Of a stretch of DNA of 64,000 nucleotides, positions 13,454 to 52,398 are shown piece by piece. The notes under the pieces are model-generated. The model was not told the DNA's origin and did no database searches. It was given only the letters and a program-made list of their open reading frames with translations. The DNA is from Acidimicrobiia bacterium. Lineage in GTDB: Bacteria > Actinomycetota > Acidimicrobiia > Spongiisociales > UBA5794. The translations under genes and the position numbers were made by a program. How positions within the stretch are numbered: the first letter of the stretch is position 1; every line of letters starts with the position of its first letter. The stretch is taken from the NCBI GenBank assembly GCA_003235475.1, contig QJWC01000116.1, positions 29-64,028 of the forward strand, written 5' to 3'.

Positions 13454-14058
13454 CGTGGGTGAAGGTGTGCGGCCTTTCGACGCACGAGACGGTGCGCGCC
13501 GCTGAGGAGTCCGGCGCCGACGCCGTCGGCTTCGTTCTCGTACCTTCGTCGCCCCGCGTTGTGACCCTGGCACTCGCCGGTGAGCTCATCGAGGCGTCGT
13601 CGGCCGACTCGTACGTGTTGACCCTCGATGTCGGTGTCGCCGAGGGCGTCGAGATCCTCCGCGAGTTGGATGCAACCGGTGTCCAACCCTATGGCGAAGG
13701 AAGGCGCGCGTTCGCCGAAGCGGCGCTCCATGCCGGTTTCAAGGTGCTGTATCCGATTCCCGTTTCGGGACAGACGCCACCGGACGCGAAGGCGGTACCG
13801 GCCGGCGCCGTGCCGTTGTTCGATCATTCCGATCCGGATGCGCTGGGCGGGACCGGTCGAACCTTCGCCTGGTCGGCGTTGAACGGCGCGCCGCAGCCGT
13901 ACGTGGCCGCGGGAGGCCTGAGCCCTGACAATGTGAGAGACCTCGTTCGCTCCTTCGCGCCCTGGGGCGTCGACGCATCGAGCGGACTGGAGATTTCCCC
14001 GGGTGTCAAGGACGTGCATACCATCCGCGCATTCGTGAAGGCGGCGAAGCAGGCATGA
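13450..14058 (+). CDS. trpF: phosphoribosylanthranilate isomerase
   Basis: [39 protein letters not shown]. Confidence 0.95.
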
Positions 14059-15239
14059 AACTCGAACGACCGGACAGCGCAGGCAGGTTTGGCTCGTTTG
14101 GCGGCTCGTTCGCCCCTGAGACGCTGATGCCTGCGCTCACCGAGCTCGAGCGGGCCTTCACGGAGGCGTGGGGAGATCCCTCGTTCCGCGAGGAGCTCGA
14201 CGGCCTCCTCGCATCCTTCGTAGGACGGCCGACGCCCGCCCACCGGGCCACCCGCTTGAGCGACCGGCTCGGCATCGATCTCTGGCTCAAGAGGGAGGAC
14301 CTCGCACACACCGGTGCGCACAAGATCAACAACACCGTCGGCCAGGGGCTTCTCGCCAAGCGGATGGGGAAGCCACGGATCATCGCGGAGACGGGAGCTG
14401 GCCAGCACGGCGTCGCGACGGCGACCGCAGCCGCGCTTCTCGGCTTCGAATGCGCGGTGTACATGGGGGAGAAGGACATCGAGCGTCAGGCGCTCAACGT
14501 CTACCGCATGGAGCTGCTCGGTACCGAGGTGATCCCCGTGACGTCCGGTTCGGGCACCCTCAAGGATGCGGTTTCGGCTGCTCTCAGGGACTGGGTCGCC
14601 TCTGTCGAGAACACGCACTACATCATCGGTTCGGTTGTGGGGCCGCATCCCTTCCCATGGATGGTTCGGGAATTCCAGAAAGTGATCGGAGAGGAACTCC
14701 AGGGCCAACTCGATGGCTCGAAAGGTCATCCGAGGCCCGATGTGATCGTCGCGCCGGTCGGCGGCGGGTCGAACGCCATGGGGGTCTTCTACCCATACGT
14801 GGGAGATACGTCGGTTCGCTTGGTCGGCGTCGAGGCCGCTGGTCTCGGGATCGAAACGGGGCATCACGGAGCGTCGCTCGGTCACGGTTCGCCGGGGGTG
14901 CTGCACGGTGCGATGAGCTACATGCTCCAGGACGCCGAAGGGCAGGTGCTCGAAGCGCACTCGATCAGTGCGGGACTCGACTACCCAGGGGTCGGGCCAG
15001 AGCACAGCTACTTCAAGGATGCGGGGCTTGTCGAGTACGACAGCGTCTCGGACACCGAGGCGGTCGGGGCACTTCACCTCCTTTCTTCGACCGAGGGCAT
15101 CATCCCCGCGCTCGAGTCGGCCCACGCGCTGGCGTGGATCACGAGGGAAGCAGCCTCGCTATCGGGCAAGACGGTGGTGTTGAACCTCTCCGGGAGAGGC
15201 GACAAGGACGTCCAGCAGGTGGCGGCGTTCGATGGCTGA
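14055..15239 (+). CDS. trpB: tryptophan synthase beta chain
   Basis: [41 protein letters not shown]. Confidence 0.98.
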
Positions 15240-16041
15240 CGGCAGGGCCGCTCTCACGGCGATGTTCGCAAGTGCTCGCTCGGAGGGCAGGGCGGTTCTG
15301 CTGCCGTATCTCACTGCCGGGCTCCCCGATCCAGATTCGTCTGTCGAGATCTTCGCTGCGATGGCGGCCGCCGGAGCGGATGGCTTCGAAATCGGAATCC
15401 CGTACTCGGACCCGCTCATGGACGGTCCAACGATCATGGAGGCTGGAGAGCGGGCCCTGAAGAGAGGGATGACGGTCGACAGGTCGCTCGATGTGGTGCG
15501 TTCGGTCGTTGAGCGGACGGGAGTGCCGGTACTCGTCATGACGTACGTGAACCCGGTGCTCCATCGAGGCATCGATGCATTCTTCGGCGCCGCGGCGGAT
15601 GCAGGTGCGGCTGGCGTCATCCTCGCCGACCTCCCCGTCGACGAAGCAGTGCCGTTCGTGGACGCAGCAACCCGACAGGGTCTCGGCATGGTGCTCTTCG
15701 TCGCTCCGACGACGACCGCAGGGCGTCTCGAGAAGGTCGTGGCAGCGGATCCAGCCTTCGTGTACGCCATCGCCGAGGTCGGCGTGACGGGGGAGAGGGA
15801 CCGCGCCTCTGTGAACACAGCGTCGTTGGCGGCGTCGCTTCGAGAGCGTTCCGATGTGCCGGTGGTGTTCGGCGTCGGGATCGCATCGCCCGATCAAGCA
15901 CGACAGGCCGCAGCCGACGGCGACGGGGTGATCGTCGGAACCGCGATCGTCAGGCGCGTGCTCGACGCGGACAGCGCCCGAGCAGCCATCGAGGAGCTCA
16001 CGCCGTTCGTTCGCGATCTGGCATCAGCGGTACGGCGATGA
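15232..16041 (+). CDS. trpA: tryptophan synthase alpha chain
   Basis: [31 protein letters not shown]. Confidence 0.97.
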
Positions 16042-16056
16042 CGAGCGCCGCGGTTC

Positions 16057-16529
16057 GTACCGGGAGAGGGACTCGAACCCGAAAGTACTGACCCGGGGTC
16101 TGGCGCAAGTTGTTGTCTCCGCGTTGCATTGAGTCGTGAGCGCAAGAGTGCGTCAGAGTGGGTGGAGAGCGTTCCCTCGGTGATTCTTGAGGGGAGCCTC
16201 GCGTGAGTACCGGGAGAGGGACTCGAACCCAAAAGCATTGACCCGGGGTTTCGCGCATGCCGGCGACGTCGCGGTCCAATGAGTCGTGGAGGTGACGTTG
16301 CCTTGTGGGGCCCCGAGGTCTCGTGCTCGGTGATTCCTGAGGGTGCCTCGCGGGGGTACCGGGAGAGGGACTCGAACCCAAAAGCATTGACCCAGGGTTT
16401 CGCGCGAGCCGATGTGTTCGCGTTGTGATGAGTCGTGAAAGCAAGAGTGCGTCGGCGTGGGTGGAGAGCGTTCCCTCGGTGATTCTTGAGGGGAGCCTCG
16501 CGTGGGTACCGGGAGAGGGACTCGAACCC
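16057..16529 (-). repeat. tandem array of three ~150-bp units each delimited by a 24-bp copy of the tRNA-Leu(CAA) 3' end
   Basis: GTACCGGGAGAGGGACTCGAACCC at 16057, 16207, 16356 and 16506 (last copy is the tRNA's own 3' end); periods 150/149/150. Confidence 0.95.
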
Positions 16530-16589
16530 TCACGAGCTTGCGCCCAGCGGATTTTGAGTCCGCCGCGTCTTCCATTCCGCCATCCCGGC
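16507..16589 (-). tRNA. tRNA-Leu(CAA)
   Basis: minus strand GCCGGGATGGCGGAATGGAAGACGCGGCGGACT-CAA-AATCCGCT...GGGTTCGAGTCCCTCTCCCGGTA; long variable arm. Confidence 0.95.
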
Positions 16590-16637
16590 CGGTCGCGGCA
16601 GGATAGGGGCAGCGCCGCGAAGGTCTACTCTGGCCGC

Positions 16638-19253
16638 ATGCCGAAACTCGCGTTGCTCGATGGGTATTCGCTCGCCTATCGAGCGTTCTACGCCCTCCCG
16701 CCGGACCTCGCGACACCGTCGGGTCAGATCACGAACGCAGTCTTCGGCTTCACCTCGATGCTGATCAAGCTGATGGACGATGAGGCGCCGGATGCGATCG
16801 CGGTGGCGTGGGACCGCAAGGAACCGACCTTCCGCGTTGCCGAGTATCCGGAATACAAGGCGAACCGCGAGGCGGCGCCAGACCTGTTCCGGTCGCAGGT
16901 ACCGCTGATCCACGATGTGCTCGAGGCGATGAACATCCCTGAGATATCGGCGGCAGGTTTCGAGGCAGACGATGTGATAGCGACGCTCGTGGAGAGTGCG
17001 AAGTCCTCGGACGTCGATGTCATCGTCGTCACCGGCGACCGTGACGCCTTCCAACTGTCGTCCGACGATGTGACCATCGTGTACACGCGACGCGGGATAT
17101 CAGACACGGTGCATGCAACCCCGGAATGGATCGAGGAGCGATACGGCATCAGCCCGTCGCGCTACGTCGAGTATGCGGCCCTGAGAGGCGACTCCTCGGA
17201 CAACCTGCCAGGCGTCCCTGGCGTAGGGGAGAAGACCGCTGCGAAGCTGATCAACGAATACGCATCGCTCGAGGAGCTCTACGCCCACCTCGATGCGATG
17301 ACCCCGAAGCTGCGGGAGAACCTCGAGAACGCGAGGGAGCAGGTGTTCGTCAACGAGCGCCTCATGACCATGGTGAGAGACGTCCCACTCGACGGGGTCA
17401 CACCGGAGAGCTTCGAGCTCGAACCGTTCGACAGGGACCGCGTGCGCGCGCTCTTCGACGACCTCGCCTTCCGCACGCTGTGGCAGCGGCTCGAAGAGCT
17501 CGGGGGCCTCGGCGAGAGGACGGAGGCCATCGAGGAGGTCGAGGTCATCACGGCAACGACCGCCGCCCAGGCGACCGGGGTGGGCAGCAATGGCATCGTC
17601 GCGTGCGAGCCTGTGTGGGATGACGAGGCGCTCGTCGGCTTTGTCGCATCCGGAGAACCGTGCGTGTTCGTGCCGCTGGAGCTGGCGGGCGACACGTTCG
17701 CCGAAGCGGTTGCGATCGCGGGGCACGACGTCAAACCGATGCTCAGGGCGCTGCTCGAAGCCCAGATGTCGCTACCGAAGGTGGCGTTCGACACGATGCT
17801 CGCGGCGTGGATCGTGAACCCGGCGCAGCGGGCCCCTTCGATCGACGACCTCGCGTACCGCCAGATCGGTTTCGACGTTGGAACGTCCGCAGACGGCGGG
17901 GCTGCGTCACCACAAAGGGCGTTCTCGTTCGAAGAGGAAGAAGGTCTCGATATCGAGGCTGCGGCGCGCCGCGCAGTCGCCGTGGAGCGGCTCATCGATC
18001 CGTTGAGGGCACAACTCGACGCCCGCGGCACCTCGGAGCTCTACGACGGTGTCGAGATCCCACTCATCGCGATCCTTGCCGAGATGGAGGATGCGGGAAT
18101 CGGAATCGATCGCGCCTTCCTCACATCGTTCGGCGAGGATCTCGCAAGGCGCATCGCGACGCTCCAGGAGGACATCCACGCCCTTGCCGGACACGCGTTC
18201 AATGTGAACTCCACCCTCCAGCTTCGGCAGGTGCTCTTCGACGAGCTCGGGCTTCCCGTGATCAAGAAGACACCGAAGGGCGCACCGTCCACCGATGCCT
18301 CTGTCCTCGAGAAGCTCGGTGATGAGCACGACATCGTCGCGAAGCTGCTCGAGTTCCGCGAGCTCGACAAGCTCCGTTCGACCTATGTCGAGTCGCTCCT
18401 CGGACTGGTCGATCCAGACGGCCGCGTGCGTGGCCGTTTCAATCAGACCGGGGCGGCCACCGGTCGGCTCTCCATGGAAGCCCCGAACCTCCAGAACATC
18501 CCGGCCCGCAGCGAGGAGGGAAGGGCGATACGCAAGGCTTTCGTGAGCGAGGAGGGCTCGAGCTTCCTCGTCGCTGACTACTCCCAGATCGAACTCCGCA
18601 TCCTCGCCCACCTATCCGAGGATCCGGGGCTCGTCGAGGCGTTCGAGAACGACATCGACATCCACGCCGCGACGGCGGCTCGGGTCAACGCCGTTCCGCT
18701 CGACGAGGTCACGGACGACATGCGCCGCACGTCGAAGATGATCAACTTCGGGCTGCTCTACGGGATGGAGGCGTATGGTCTCGCGCAACGGCTCGATATC
18801 TCCCGGAGCGAGGCTCAGCGCCACATCGACGAGTATTTCGTTCAGTTCCCGGATGTGCGTGCGTTCATGTCGGGCATCGTGGACGAGGCCCGATCGACTG
18901 GATTCACCACAACGATCCTCGGTCGTCGCCGATATCTCCCCGAACTCAATGCCAGGAGCACTCGGGAGCGCCAGATGGGGGAGCGGATGGCCCTCAACGC
19001 CCCGATTCAGGGATCCGCAGCCGACGTCATCAAAAAGGCGATGATCGTGCTCCACGGCGAGTTCGCATCCCATACACTTGCGGCGTCGATGCTGCTGCAG
19101 ATCCATGACGAGCTCGTGATCGAGGTCCGCGACGACGATCTCGACGCTGCCACGACCTTGACGAGGGATGTCATGCAGGGCGTGGTGGAGCTGAAGGTGC
19201 CGCTGAAGGTGTCGTACGCAGTCGGCAAGACCCTCGCGGAGGCCGCTCACTAG
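16638..19253 (+). CDS. polA: DNA polymerase I
   Basis: LLDGYSLAYRAFYAL, GDSSDNLPGVPGVGEKTA, ADYSQIELRILAH, NAPIQGSAAD, LQIHDEL. Confidence 0.98.
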   Translation: MPKLALLDGYSLAYRAFYALPPDLATPSGQITNAVFGFTSMLIKLMDDEAPDAIAVAWDRKEPTFRVAEYPEYKANREAAPDLFRSQVPLIHDVLEAMNIPEISAAGFEADDVIATLVESAKSSDVDVIVVTGDRDAFQLSSDDVTIVYTRRGISDTVHATPEWIEERYGISPSRYVEYAALRGDSSDNLPGVPGVGEKTAAKLINEYASLEELYAHLDAMTPKLRENLENAREQVFVNERLMTMVRDVPLDGVTPESFELEPFDRDRVRALFDDLAFRTLWQRLEELGGLGERTEAIEEVEVITATTAAQATGVGSNGIVACEPVWDDEALVGFVASGEPCVFVPLELAGDTFAEAVAIAGHDVKPMLRALLEAQMSLPKVAFDTMLAAWIVNPAQRAPSIDDLAYRQIGFDVGTSADGGAASPQRAFSFEEEEGLDIEAAARRAVAVERLIDPLRAQLDARGTSELYDGVEIPLIAILAEMEDAGIGIDRAFLTSFGEDLARRIATLQEDIHALAGHAFNVNSTLQLRQVLFDELGLPVIKKTPKGAPSTDASVLEKLGDEHDIVAKLLEFRELDKLRSTYVESLLGLVDPDGRVRGRFNQTGAATGRLSMEAPNLQNIPARSEEGRAIRKAFVSEEGSSFLVADYSQIELRILAHLSEDPGLVEAFENDIDIHAATAARVNAVPLDEVTDDMRRTSKMINFGLLYGMEAYGLAQRLDISRSEAQRHIDEYFVQFPDVRAFMSGIVDEARSTGFTTTILGRRRYLPELNARSTRERQMGERMALNAPIQGSAADVIKKAMIVLHGEFASHTLAASMLLQIHDELVIEVRDDDLDAATTLTRDVMQGVVELKVPLKVSYAVGKTLAEAAH

Positions 19254-52275: not shown

Positions 52276-52360
52276 GTCGGAGTGGCGGAATTGGTAGACG
52301 CGCTAGGTTGAGGGCCTAGTGGGCGAATAGCCCGTGGAAGTTCGAGTCTTCTCTCCGACA
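52276..52360 (+). tRNA. tRNA-Leu(GAG)
   Basis: GTCGGAGTGGCGGAATTGGTAGACGCG-CTAGG-TTGAGGG-CCTAG...GTTCGAGTCTTCTCTCCGACA. Confidence 0.95.
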
Positions 52361-52398
52361 CCCAATACCGGGGACACCTGTCGCTAGGCTGGCCGACC

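Follow-up and report, generated by a model that had tools for sequence, protein, structure and literature searches.

Tandem repeats behind the tyrT tRNA gene of Escherichia coli have been known for decades, and their origin and function are little understood. Another E. coli tRNA-trailer spacer, the 3′ETS of leuZ, acts as a small RNA; it is unrepeated and carries no copies of the tRNA end. The tyrV locus of E. coli K-12, where the small RNA RttR is annotated, has 3.1 copies of a 178-bp repeat that each time finishes in 19 nt copied from the tRNA end. One report describes the release of rttR small RNA from a tRNA precursor in E. coli (10.1101/2024.07.17.603846). Direct repeats of tRNA 3′ parts are also a product of integration: integrases with an attB site starting in the T-loop are described as duplicating the part of the tRNA gene from the T-loop to its end (10.1101/2020.11.02.365908). 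CIMEs, in the description given for these elements, arise by decay of an ICE or IME, measure kilobases and still contain gene remnants. Here, we describe a lineage-restricted family of non-coding modules of approximately 125 bp at tRNA genes of an actinobacterial class. An earlier note on this DNA had pointed to E. coli tyrT as a parallel, which holds against the tyrV reference locus, and had called the array the best candidate for an undescribed system, which goes too far, since the E. coli rtT repeats have this very layout. The novelty lies in the sequence family, in the many tRNAs that it has reached and in the constraint acting on its tRNA-end copies.

The window is the whole stretch of DNA that was analysed, 64,000 nucleotides from an Acidimicrobiia bacterium. 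Its positions 16057–16529 contain three non-coding units of 150, 149 and 150 bp, bounded by a 24-mer that recurs exactly four times; the last occurrence forms the 3′ end of tRNA-Leu(CAA) (Table 1). The three units beside this tRNA are as the earlier note had it: ARAGORN places the tRNA on the minus strand, and Tandem Repeats Finder reports a period of 150, 3.2 copies and 75% matches for positions 16057–16529. The bounding 24-mer, GTACCGGGAGAGGGACTCGAACCC, is exact at 16057, 16207, 16356 and 16506, again as claimed; 0 of 100 shuffles contain a match, and there is no extra copy at up to 3 mismatches. The note had given it as T-loop, inner T-stem and 3′ acceptor strand; an Infernal tRNA alignment corrects its span to tRNA positions 51–74, which comprise three bases of the T-stem, the T-loop, the 3′ strands of T-stem and acceptor stem, the discriminator and a single C. 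CCA is incompletely encoded. The three units align over 150 columns with one gap (alignment A1), and conserved and variable blocks lie where the note had placed them, in the sequence as well as in the alignment. Module bodies are 69–84% identical and the cores are identical in all four copies. Neither an integrase nor a cas gene nor an ORF near the array was found on the window contig, which agrees with the note. Both ARAGORN and the Rfam tRNA model recognise only the true tRNA at the array and no further cloverleaf, and the module bodies contain no partner for the acceptor strand. The distal 24-mer is bridged, from trpA into the first unit, by contigs of runs X1, X3 and X4, the first being possibly the source sample of the window DNA. 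Because no single contig spans the whole array, the window copy number of three is that of this assembly.

Table 1 Features of the array at tRNA-Leu(CAA) and its flanks, in window coordinates
Feature	Position	Strand	Basis
tRNA-Leu(CAA) gene	16505..16589	-	ARAGORN; Rfam tRNA model, 56.7 bits; last 24 nt are the proximal core copy
Core copy 0, within tRNA, positions 51-74	16506..16529	-	Exact 24-mer match
Module body 1, tRNA-proximal, begins directly after tRNA end	16380..16505	-	Alignment A1; model R1, 72.3 bits; nhmmer
Core copy 1	16356..16379	-	Exact 24-mer match
Module body 2, middle, most divergent	16231..16355	-	A1; model R1, 53.1 bits; 69-73% identity to bodies 1 and 3
Core copy 2	16207..16230	-	Exact 24-mer match
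Module body 3, distal	16081..16206	-	A1; model R1, 68.6 bits; 84% identity to body 1
Core copy 3, distal array end	16057..16080	-	Exact 24-mer match; 15 bp from trpA stop codon
Conserved block beside tRNA end, CTCGGTGATTCTTGAGGGGAGCCTCGCG read on plus	16475..16502	-	Sequence; conserved A1 and A2 columns
Further copies of the CTCGGTGATTCTTGAGGGGAGCCTCGCG block	16326-16352, 16176-16203	-	Sequence
Central conserved motif, TGAGTCGTG read on plus	16429..16437	-	Sequence; invariant A2 columns
Further copies of the central motif TGAGTCGTG	16280-16288, 16130-16138	-	Sequence
trpA, flank convergent with tRNA, outside element	15232..16041	+	Pfam Trp_syntA, 254.9 bits
polA, flank upstream of tRNA, outside element	16638..19253	+	Pfam DNA_pol_A, 493.7 bits, and 5'-3' exonuclease domains

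Related modules are found at tRNA genes of 13 anticodons (Leu-CAA, Ser-GCT, Ser-GGA, Ser-CGA, Val-GAC, Val-CAC, Val-TAC, His, Glu-TTC, Met, Lys, Thr-GGT and Ala-CGC), where the block pattern that the earlier note had wanted checked in relatives recurs; conserved blocks are common to two genera. The modules are always oriented with the tRNA strand, start at the tRNA 3′ end or a few bases away, and are closed by a copy of the local tRNA’s own 3′ end, approximately positions 52–74. On the left the identity always begins at T-loop GTTC or GGTTC, and on the right it stops at positions 73–76. Across the family the repeat period is 144–154 bp; the note's claim of fixed length is good to ±1 bp in the window and to ±3–5 bp in the family. 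Distribution is patchy, with matches to model R1 in 2 of the 30 genera of the bacterial family. A coding role was rejected because the central motif and the block after it are separated by distances that do not differ in steps of 3 (matched strings of 57–63 nt), and the profile alignment A2 has no coding pattern. Related bodies at different tRNAs reach a best identity of 0.78–0.80; none are near-identical, so nothing suggests that modules moved between tRNAs recently.

Single modules, in which the tRNA end and one copy are followed by native flank and a terminator hairpin, are present at Thr-GGT in genome G020 and at Ser-CGA and Ser-GCT in the window’s own genome, where the Ser-linked modules are degenerate. 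Closure of a lone module by one copy is a signature of insertion, not of tandem duplication of the trailer. Some loci count against the reading that we favour below: the closing copy is missing from the Lys-TTT module in G149 (the G324 contig stops within the unit) and from a decayed module at Thr in G077, and several arrays finish in a truncated module instead of a copy. Inverted-repeat-like ends (GTCTYG.CCC ... GGGTCGAGAC), read from the sequence, are confined to the Val and His subtype.

Several apparent outliers were set aside. A unit that seemed free of a tRNA (L079) sits behind the displaced 3′ half of a tRNA-Val; four lone pattern matches in other families of the order have no tRNAs and were dropped as chance; and a metagenome scan with the family pattern returned three stretches, none with a tRNA and one with a weak partial profile match, which are probably chance as well. 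No larger ‘parent’ element with the same ends was found, and unpaired matches to the 5′ block barely exceed a reversed-pattern control. Phage and plasmid collections gave no match to the window array, and viral contigs gave 0 matches to the family pattern. In a literature search that covered texts outside supplementary files, we found no such repeats described for Acidimicrobiia and no multi-locus repeats of approximately 150 bp bounded by tRNA ends. Other tRNA-end duplications, of different kinds, occur in the same genome: at tRNA-Arg(ACG) there is a remnant of 263 bp that includes a 45-bp repeat, and tRNA-Glu(CTC) has pseudo-tRNA-like repeats of 94 bp.

The copies are far more constant than the bodies that they enclose. 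Among 16 intact arrays, 43 of 49 copies outside the tRNA itself have 0 mismatches in 21 nt, and the bodies there are 62–84% identical. At tRNA-Val(GAC), comparison of G149 with G324 gives 0 changes in the 115 nt of five copies, against approximately 10 expected, with flanks 85.7% and orthologous bodies 81–83% identical. Judged from such comparisons, the tRNA-end copies are under measurable constraint. CCA is often lost from them. In 4 of the 5 intact arrays with decay, decayed copies lie at the distal end or rise toward it, and copies are decayed too in an array that an island has separated from its tRNA. The island at tRNA-Val was integrated via a site stretching between anticodon loop and 3′ end, and simply displaced the array.

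Copy number is variable, as the earlier note had predicted: orthologous tRNAs carry one to six units, the number differing between species, and the orthologous trpA–tRNA-Leu–polA locus is empty in 9 of 9 genomes of the same genus. Identical neighbouring units exist, and at Ser-GCT of G020 the order is a,b,a,a,a.

Terminator-like hairpins, also read from the sequence, follow the arrays at L055, L054, L080, C99 of the own genome, L096 and L086, so that wherever the far end is readable the array lies between the tRNA and such a hairpin. The modules are therefore most likely transcribed with the tRNA. In the window array itself, 0 promoter-like or terminator-like sites were scored. Folding signals are mixed. 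RNAalifold gave no usable consensus structure on either strand, and one subtype reached a weak consensus (−12.2). Averaged over 34 units, the fold z-score is −1.07 for the tRNA strand and −0.81 for its complement; the window units fold better on the plus strand, most units of genus g12 on the tRNA strand. In the commonest subtype, tRNA-strand hairpins with G-U pairs have fold z-scores down to −4.8. A tRNA-like fold made by body and copy together was rejected, as in 27 of 32 units the own copy pairs worse than foreign copies do. The copies retain only two or three T-stem pairs, and because the T-stem and the acceptor partner are missing, no tRNA-like structure explains why the copies equal the tRNA.

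In the own genome (95% complete) the tyrosine recombinases are XerC- and XerD-like only, on other contigs, and Cas1, reverse transcriptase, Y1 transposase and phage-type integrase were not found. Among five other carriers, Cas1 was found in none and no reverse transcriptase was detected; these carriers have 1–10 further tyrosine recombinases, none adjoining the arrays.

The explanation that we favour, at rather less than even confidence, is that the modules are co-transcribed parts of the tRNA trailer and that the tRNA-end copies serve as recombination joints. One to six head-to-tail modules would fill the trailer from tRNA to terminator on a single transcript, and the copies would be working joints held identical to the tRNA. 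Modules could be gained, lost or duplicated by recombination between copies, either through loop-out and loop-in of circles of approximately 150 bp or by unequal exchange; the copies would be att-like because modules recombine at them. The first insertion at a tRNA would most likely follow the site-specific integration logic of T-loop-type integrases, and the match between the copy edges and the tRNA part that integrases are described as duplicating counts for this. The conserved, AU-richer blocks beside the copies and in mid-module may be protein-binding or processing sites, with the variable stretches acting as spacers of constrained length. We count the family spread, copy edges, single modules, copy constancy, decay polarity, copy-number dynamics, hairpins and the tyrV precedent for this reading. 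Against it stands the lack of any enzyme found in the own genome beyond the XerC- and XerD-like proteins, and a carried att core does not readily account for bodies that are related although the 3′ ends of their tRNAs differ. The missing near-identical modules at different tRNAs, the modules and arrays that lack a closing copy, the absence of matches in viral, phage and plasmid collections and the 0 sites scored in the window array also count against it.

The main rival, which we consider somewhat unlikely, is a host-functional RNA similar to rtT (RttR), a 3′ external-transcribed-spacer RNA cut from the tRNA precursor, whose blocks and copies are kept by RNA-level selection on processing, stability or regulation and whose arrays grow only by ordinary unequal crossing-over. 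The layout equals that of RttR as annotated behind tyrV, the arrays lie between tRNA and terminator hairpins, and blocks and copies have been conserved since the species and genus splits in genomes without a candidate mobilising enzyme. The G-U-containing hairpins of the commonest subtype point the same way, and the weaker pairing with the own copy looks as if tRNA folding were being spared. However, copies without a T-stem or an acceptor partner, and often without CCA, count against it; so do the missing consensus structure, the modest mean z-scores of the two strands, the better folding of the window units on the opposite strand and the lack of a match to the Rfam RtT model. The patchy occurrence and the nine empty Leu loci of congeners also weigh against it. 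The related proposal of the earlier note, an array co-transcribed with the tRNA and processed into small RNAs, is possible.

One mobile-element explanation, which we regard as unlikely, supposes an undescribed class of miniature elements without an enzyme of their own, homing to the T-loop in nearly any tRNA gene, copying its last 22–24 bp at each insertion and so forming polar, CRISPR-like arrays behind it; they would be moved by a host recombinase (for example, XerCD) or an unrecognised protein, and E. coli rtT would be a distant example. The note’s own version, serially integrated non-autonomous miniature elements mobilised in trans, is possible too, and the lack of a mobilising enzyme in the own genome counts against it. 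Less probable than the homing elements is a miniature transposon in the style of CRISPR repeats or casposons, with a non-autonomous body of approximately 125 bp for which staggered cuts at the T-loop and the gene end, followed by gap repair, would copy 22–24 bp. Such a mechanism would account for related bodies joined to the own tRNA’s 3′ end at 13 anticodons, for the constant edges of the duplicated segment, for the inverted-repeat-like ends of the Val and His subtype and, by addition beside the tRNA, for distal copy decay. Yet copies made by insertion should decay like bodies and do not, no near-identical donor and copy pairs occur at different tRNAs, and the window subtype has no inverted ends. 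Cas1, Y1 transposase and reverse transcriptase were not found in carriers, and we know of no transposase that makes a duplication of 22–24 bp.

Neutral leftovers, that is, inactive and functionless products of tandem trailer duplication or remnants of decayed islands, are already disfavoured and very improbable. The duplications at tRNA-Arg(ACG) and tRNA-Glu(CTC) and the degenerate Ser-linked modules of the own genome would suit them, but the same blocks at 13 anticodons in two genera, the unchanged copies where about 10 changes were expected and the narrowly held period would not, and trailer duplication cannot yield single modules closed by a copy. Most improbable of all are the note’s att-site decoys against tRNA-targeting phages or islands and its guide-like segments: the copies do repeat a common integration target exactly and variable segments do lie between fixed blocks, but the tRNA-Val island used its anticodon-loop-to-3′-end site and displaced the array, no cas genes were found, phage, plasmid and viral collections gave no match, the folding signals of the variable blocks are weak and strand-ambiguous, and the ‘spacers’ are mutually homologous.

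The tyrT-type layout can now be seen as a whole family, at no fewer than 13 anticodons and with natural variation in copy number, sequence and decay. With this variation and the constraint on the copies, origin and the role as RNA, as recombination site or as both become testable by comparison. An insertion mechanism, should there be one, would represent a new mode of tRNA-gene targeting; modules that prove to be processed RNAs would give a little-studied and mostly uncultured actinobacterial class a new family of tRNA-trailer RNAs. On the practical side, the modules break short-read assemblies at tRNA genes and may pass for att sites of islands.

Among known systems, REP/BIME sequences and MITEs are likewise short, non-coding, multi-copy and intergenic, with hairpin potential and often in tandem; unlike them, the modules keep strictly to tRNA 3′ ends and to a single orientation, neither RAYT nor Y1 transposase was found, and the duplication is 22–24 bp instead of short. 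The resemblance to CRISPR arrays and casposons is one of architecture only (a short exact repeat, near-constant inserts, a fixed ‘leader’ in the form of the tRNA, and distal decay), whereas here no Cas1 was found, the 125-bp inserts are mutually homologous and part of a tRNA gene serves as the repeat. With the 3′ETS of leuZ the modules share non-coding tRNA-trailer sequence, potentially released by tRNA processing, but they are repeated and bounded by tRNA-end copies. Like integrase-made att repeats and CIMEs, as these are described, they have direct repeats of the tRNA 3′ part flanking an insert, tandem arrangement and an identity block from T-loop to gene end. In contrast to CIMEs as described, they are uniform, approximately 125 bp long and without ICE or IME gene remnants, and in contrast to CIMEs and tandem accretion they show relatedness between tRNAs whose cores differ, and they sit in a genome where the only tyrosine recombinases found are XerC- and XerD-like.

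The closest likeness is to the rtT repeats of E. coli tyrT and tyrV, where tandem units also stand directly 3′ of the tRNA on the same strand and each unit ends in a tRNA 3′-end copy that starts in the T-loop, the final copy being followed by native flank. The E. coli units do not match the modules in sequence, and the Rfam RtT model has no match in window positions 15500–17200 at E ≤ 10 or in six related loci at E ≤ 0.1. Release of RNA, as far as the report on rttR describes it, is documented for E. coli only, and the modules here are known from DNA. An E. coli unit contains, as its letters read, a 10-nt stretch complementary to its own copy, whereas the modules here do not pair with theirs. 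E. coli has 178-bp units with a 19-nt copy, 95% alike, compared with three units of 150 bp with a 24-nt copy, 69–84% alike, in the window. Finally, the E. coli repeats were examined at a single locus, whereas the family described here extends over 13 anticodons and at each of them carries the end of the local tRNA.

The repeats behind the tRNA-Leu(CAA) gene of the window belong to a tRNA-anchored repeat family that is both constrained and dynamic, in which a unit typically combines a module body of ~125 bp with a copy of the tRNA 3' end. Tandem Repeats Finder resolves 16057-16529 into 3.2 copies with a period of 150 bp, and the exact 24-mer by which the earlier note had delimited the units is confirmed, with four exact occurrences (16057, 16207, 16356 and 16506; 0/100 shuffles) that span tRNA positions 51-74 in the Infernal alignment. 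The three units fill 150 alignment columns with a single gap, and their bodies are 69-84% identical, whereas the 24-mers are identical in 4/4 cases. Within 15500-17200 no Rfam family other than tRNA was found at its gathering score, and no terminator-like site was scored in the array. The trpA stop codon lies 15 bp from the distal 24-mer, and the path from trpA through this 24-mer into the first unit is bridged by contigs of three sequencing runs, X1 (possibly the source sample) and X3 and X4 (both from other studies); further contigs cover the proximal unit, and none spans the whole array. The second tRNA gene of the window, Leu(GAG) at 52276-52362, is followed by neither a 3'-end copy nor a unit. 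The T-stem pair 50:64 of the window tRNA-Leu(CAA) is A:T, and T:A or G:C in 28/28 relatives examined (stretches L003-L031); of these two positions, only 64 belongs to the repeated 24-mer.

Features of the window array and its flanks, and spacing of 3'-end copies behind tRNA genes of the own genome
Feature	Position in window	Strand or placement	Downstream copies at (bp)	Source
tRNA-Leu(CAA)	16505-16589	minus		ARAGORN (one of two tRNA genes in window); Rfam tRNA model, 56.7 bits
trpB	14055-15239	flank		Pfam
trpA	15232-16041	flank		Pfam
polA	16638-19253	flank		Pfam
Own-genome Leu-CAA			150, 299 and 449	
Own-genome Ser-CGA			147	
Own-genome Ser-GCT			149	
Own-genome Met-CAT			151	

A search downstream of 46 tRNA genes of the own genome for repeats of their final 16 nt gave a spacing of ~150 bp behind four, and Ser-GGA is followed by a partial unit. 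Joint mapping of tRNA genes and units on 32 stretches placed the first unit 0-12 nt past the tRNA gene on the same strand, a rule covering arrays with an intact head that lies within the retrieved sequence. It does not hold for arrays truncated at contig ends, for two arrays behind a tRNA-Val 3' half that an integrated island has displaced, or for one array behind a degenerate Ser-GGA-like gene not called by ARAGORN. Units follow tRNAs of 13 anticodons (Leu-CAA, Ser-GCT, Ser-GGA, Ser-CGA, Val-GAC, Val-CAC, Val-TAC, His-GTG, Glu-TTC, Met-CAT, Lys-TTT, Thr-GGT and Ala-CGC). One 3-kb cluster of nine tRNA genes has units behind tRNA-His and tRNA-Glu and, between tRNA-Trp and tRNA-Asn, a weak 242-nt match to RNase P class A (L047:2067-2308, minus strand; 51.6 bits, gathering score 100). 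Outside the window, the own genome also holds two 94-bp units behind tRNA-Glu(CTC) (C75:800-1197), which resemble decayed partial tRNA copies, each close with a ~31-nt tRNA 3'-end copy and are of a different kind from the 150-bp family, and a region (C110:3416-3850) resembling what an integrated element leaves behind after excision or deletion.

In the orientation of the tRNA, the tRNA end or copy is followed by a conserved 5' block, either (A)CGCGAGGCT..CCTCRAGAAYCACCG or the CTTGTCYC.CCTYRAGAAYCACCG of the Val and His subtype, then by a variable stretch, the motif CACGACTCATTG, further variable sequence, GGGTCGAGACTTT with one extra base and the closing tRNA-end copy. The stretch identical to the tRNA always opens with the T-loop GTTC or GGTTC and runs to positions 73-76, CCA often being missing from the copies. 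The period is 144-154 bp, except in the Met array of the related genome G020 (193-195 bp), whose repeat takes in a two-hairpin module. This module (L103:2080-2165, L043:1437-1485) is found both inside that tRNA-Met repeat and behind tRNA-Lys of the same genome, and could represent a second type of trailer module. Single units with one closing copy, then native flank and a hairpin, are seen behind Thr-GGT of G020 and behind the own Ser-CGA and Ser-GCT, and many arrays have terminator-like hairpins downstream (read from the sequence, unscored). Hairpins of the GTCCCCCC..GGGGGGAC type terminate many tRNA transcription units across the family; with the ~100 nt after it (L080:1390-1580), this hairpin is a highly repeated element, with 73 matches in G149 and 30 in G198, two related genomes. 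Several arrays finish with the initial ~20-26 nt of another unit. The G149 Lys-TTT unit has no closing copy, and the contig of a further relative, G324, ends within the corresponding unit; the G020 Lys trailer is rearranged, and the Thr trailer of G077 is a decayed unit without a copy.

Across 16 intact arrays, 43/49 non-tRNA copies have 0 mismatches in 21 nt, whereas bodies within an array are often just 62-84% identical; the 49 exclude two picks in G020 Ser-CGA that were artefacts of the regular expression, a copy truncated at a contig end, and the displaced Val array. Changed copies sit at the distal end or increase distally in four of five intact arrays, and copies are decayed too in the displaced Val array. 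The same AT-richer island end (AAAACCCCACAAAAACCCCACAAG...) recurs in two genomes (L054:1200-1400 and L079:1000-1180), each time against the displaced 3' half of a different tRNA-Val gene, and the units kept with the displaced half have decayed there. At Val-GAC, G149 and G324 share 85.7% identity over the 1.2 kb upstream and 81-83% over orthologous bodies, whereas the five non-tRNA copies differ at 0 of 115 nt, against ~10 changes expected at the surrounding rate. Against the sequence of a related strain from X3, the window has five listed differences over 430 nt of trpA, four over the spacer of 15 nt, none in the 24-mer and eight over the adjoining 28 nt of the unit.

Orthologous tRNAs carry 1 to 6 units, and identical adjacent units exist, as in the order a,b,a,a,a at G020 Ser-GCT. 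No units are present at the Leu-CAA locus in 9/9 genomes of the same genus (g1) or in any of 28 relatives examined, which makes the window array younger than the genus; its units bear blocks typical of g12, a second genus of the family. Body identity across different tRNAs is at best 0.78-0.80, and hence there is no sign of very recent movement between loci. At L078:700-3000 (minus strand), foreign DNA of ~1.3 kb carrying remnants of ORFs interrupts a unit of a Ser-GGA-type array whose tRNA-like head gene is degenerate and missed by ARAGORN.

In a DNA-level search all 60 relatives had a match to the tRNA and only two genomes had one to a unit, both times behind serine tRNAs, and a unit-specific pattern gave real matches in 6/401 genomes of the order, all from g1 and g12 (the unpublished G050 is counted only in the denominators of this search and of both 401-genome patterns). 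Four extra single pattern matches were dropped, no tRNA being present. R1, a sequence-only profile of 27 units (alignment A2), matched 9/133 family genomes (g1 2/10, own genome included; g12 7/11; 28 other genera 0), the two genera being those from which its training units came. It gave 9 to 23 units per carrier genome. All carrier genomes are drafts or metagenome-assembled, and since arrays break short-read assemblies, the copy numbers given throughout are lower bounds; with related units not being independent, all the counts are descriptive. In a scan of 185,579 species, one genome each, 11 stretches matched; they come from three assemblies, two deposited as Acidimicrobiia bacterium and one as Armatimonadetes bacterium, so that the lineage is presumably Acidimicrobiia. 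Two Ser T-loops 114-154 bp apart were found in 16/401 genomes (reversed control 0), namely the own genome, 13/124 in its family and 2/41 in another family; as these include genomes with units that R1 did not match, the layout is wider than the sequence family.

We tentatively favour co-transcribed trailer modules with the tRNA-end copies as joints: the modules would be transcribed with the tRNA as part of its trailer, units would be gained, lost and exchanged by joining at the copies, and the first insertion at a tRNA would follow a T-loop-type site-specific logic. Tyrosine integrases that cross over in the T-loop are described as duplicating exactly that part of the tRNA gene (10.1101/2020.11.02.365908).

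The strongest rival, a host-selected rtT-like RNA, appears somewhat unlikely. Individual units have hairpin potential, with compensatory differences visible by eye in the hairpins beside the tRNA end; no alignment-wide consensus structure of the units emerged, and the mean fold z over 34 units (-1.07 for the tRNA strand and -0.81 for the other) is a weak statistic. The commonest g12 subtype favours the tRNA strand (G-U pairs, z to -4.8), and the window units favour the plus strand, the tRNA being on the minus strand. The own copy pairs worse with the body than foreign copies do in 27/32 units. A tRNA-like fold of the unit is excluded, since bodies contain no pairing partner for their copy and only 2-3 T-stem pairs are left in copies, and a conserved reading frame is excluded by spacing differences that are not multiples of three.

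A target-duplicating miniature transposon comes next and is more doubtful still. Neutral decay, decoys and guide arrays are unlikely explanations.

Among enzymes, the own genome (95% complete) has two tyrosine recombinases, with XerD and XerC as best models and both slightly below equivalog cut-offs, and no Cas1, RT or Y1 transposase was found in it. In five other carriers neither Cas1 nor RT was found; their additional tyrosine recombinases number 1 to ~10, and none was seen next to an array.

CIMEs, described as decayed elements that retain att sites, are kilobase-sized ICE remnants, unlike the Acidimicrobiia units. In the tyrT-tyrV region of E. coli K-12, tyrV is followed by 3.1 repeats of 178 bp, 95% alike, each closing with a 19-nt tRNA-end copy that starts in the T-loop. 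The first is annotated as the small RNA RttR; rttR is described as involved in tyrT transcript processing, its mode of action being given as unknown (10.1101/2024.07.17.603846). Unlike the Acidimicrobiia units, that of E. coli pairs with its copy; although the Acidimicrobiia units also differ in sequence and have no match to the Rfam RtT model, their layout is identical to that of the tyrV repeats.
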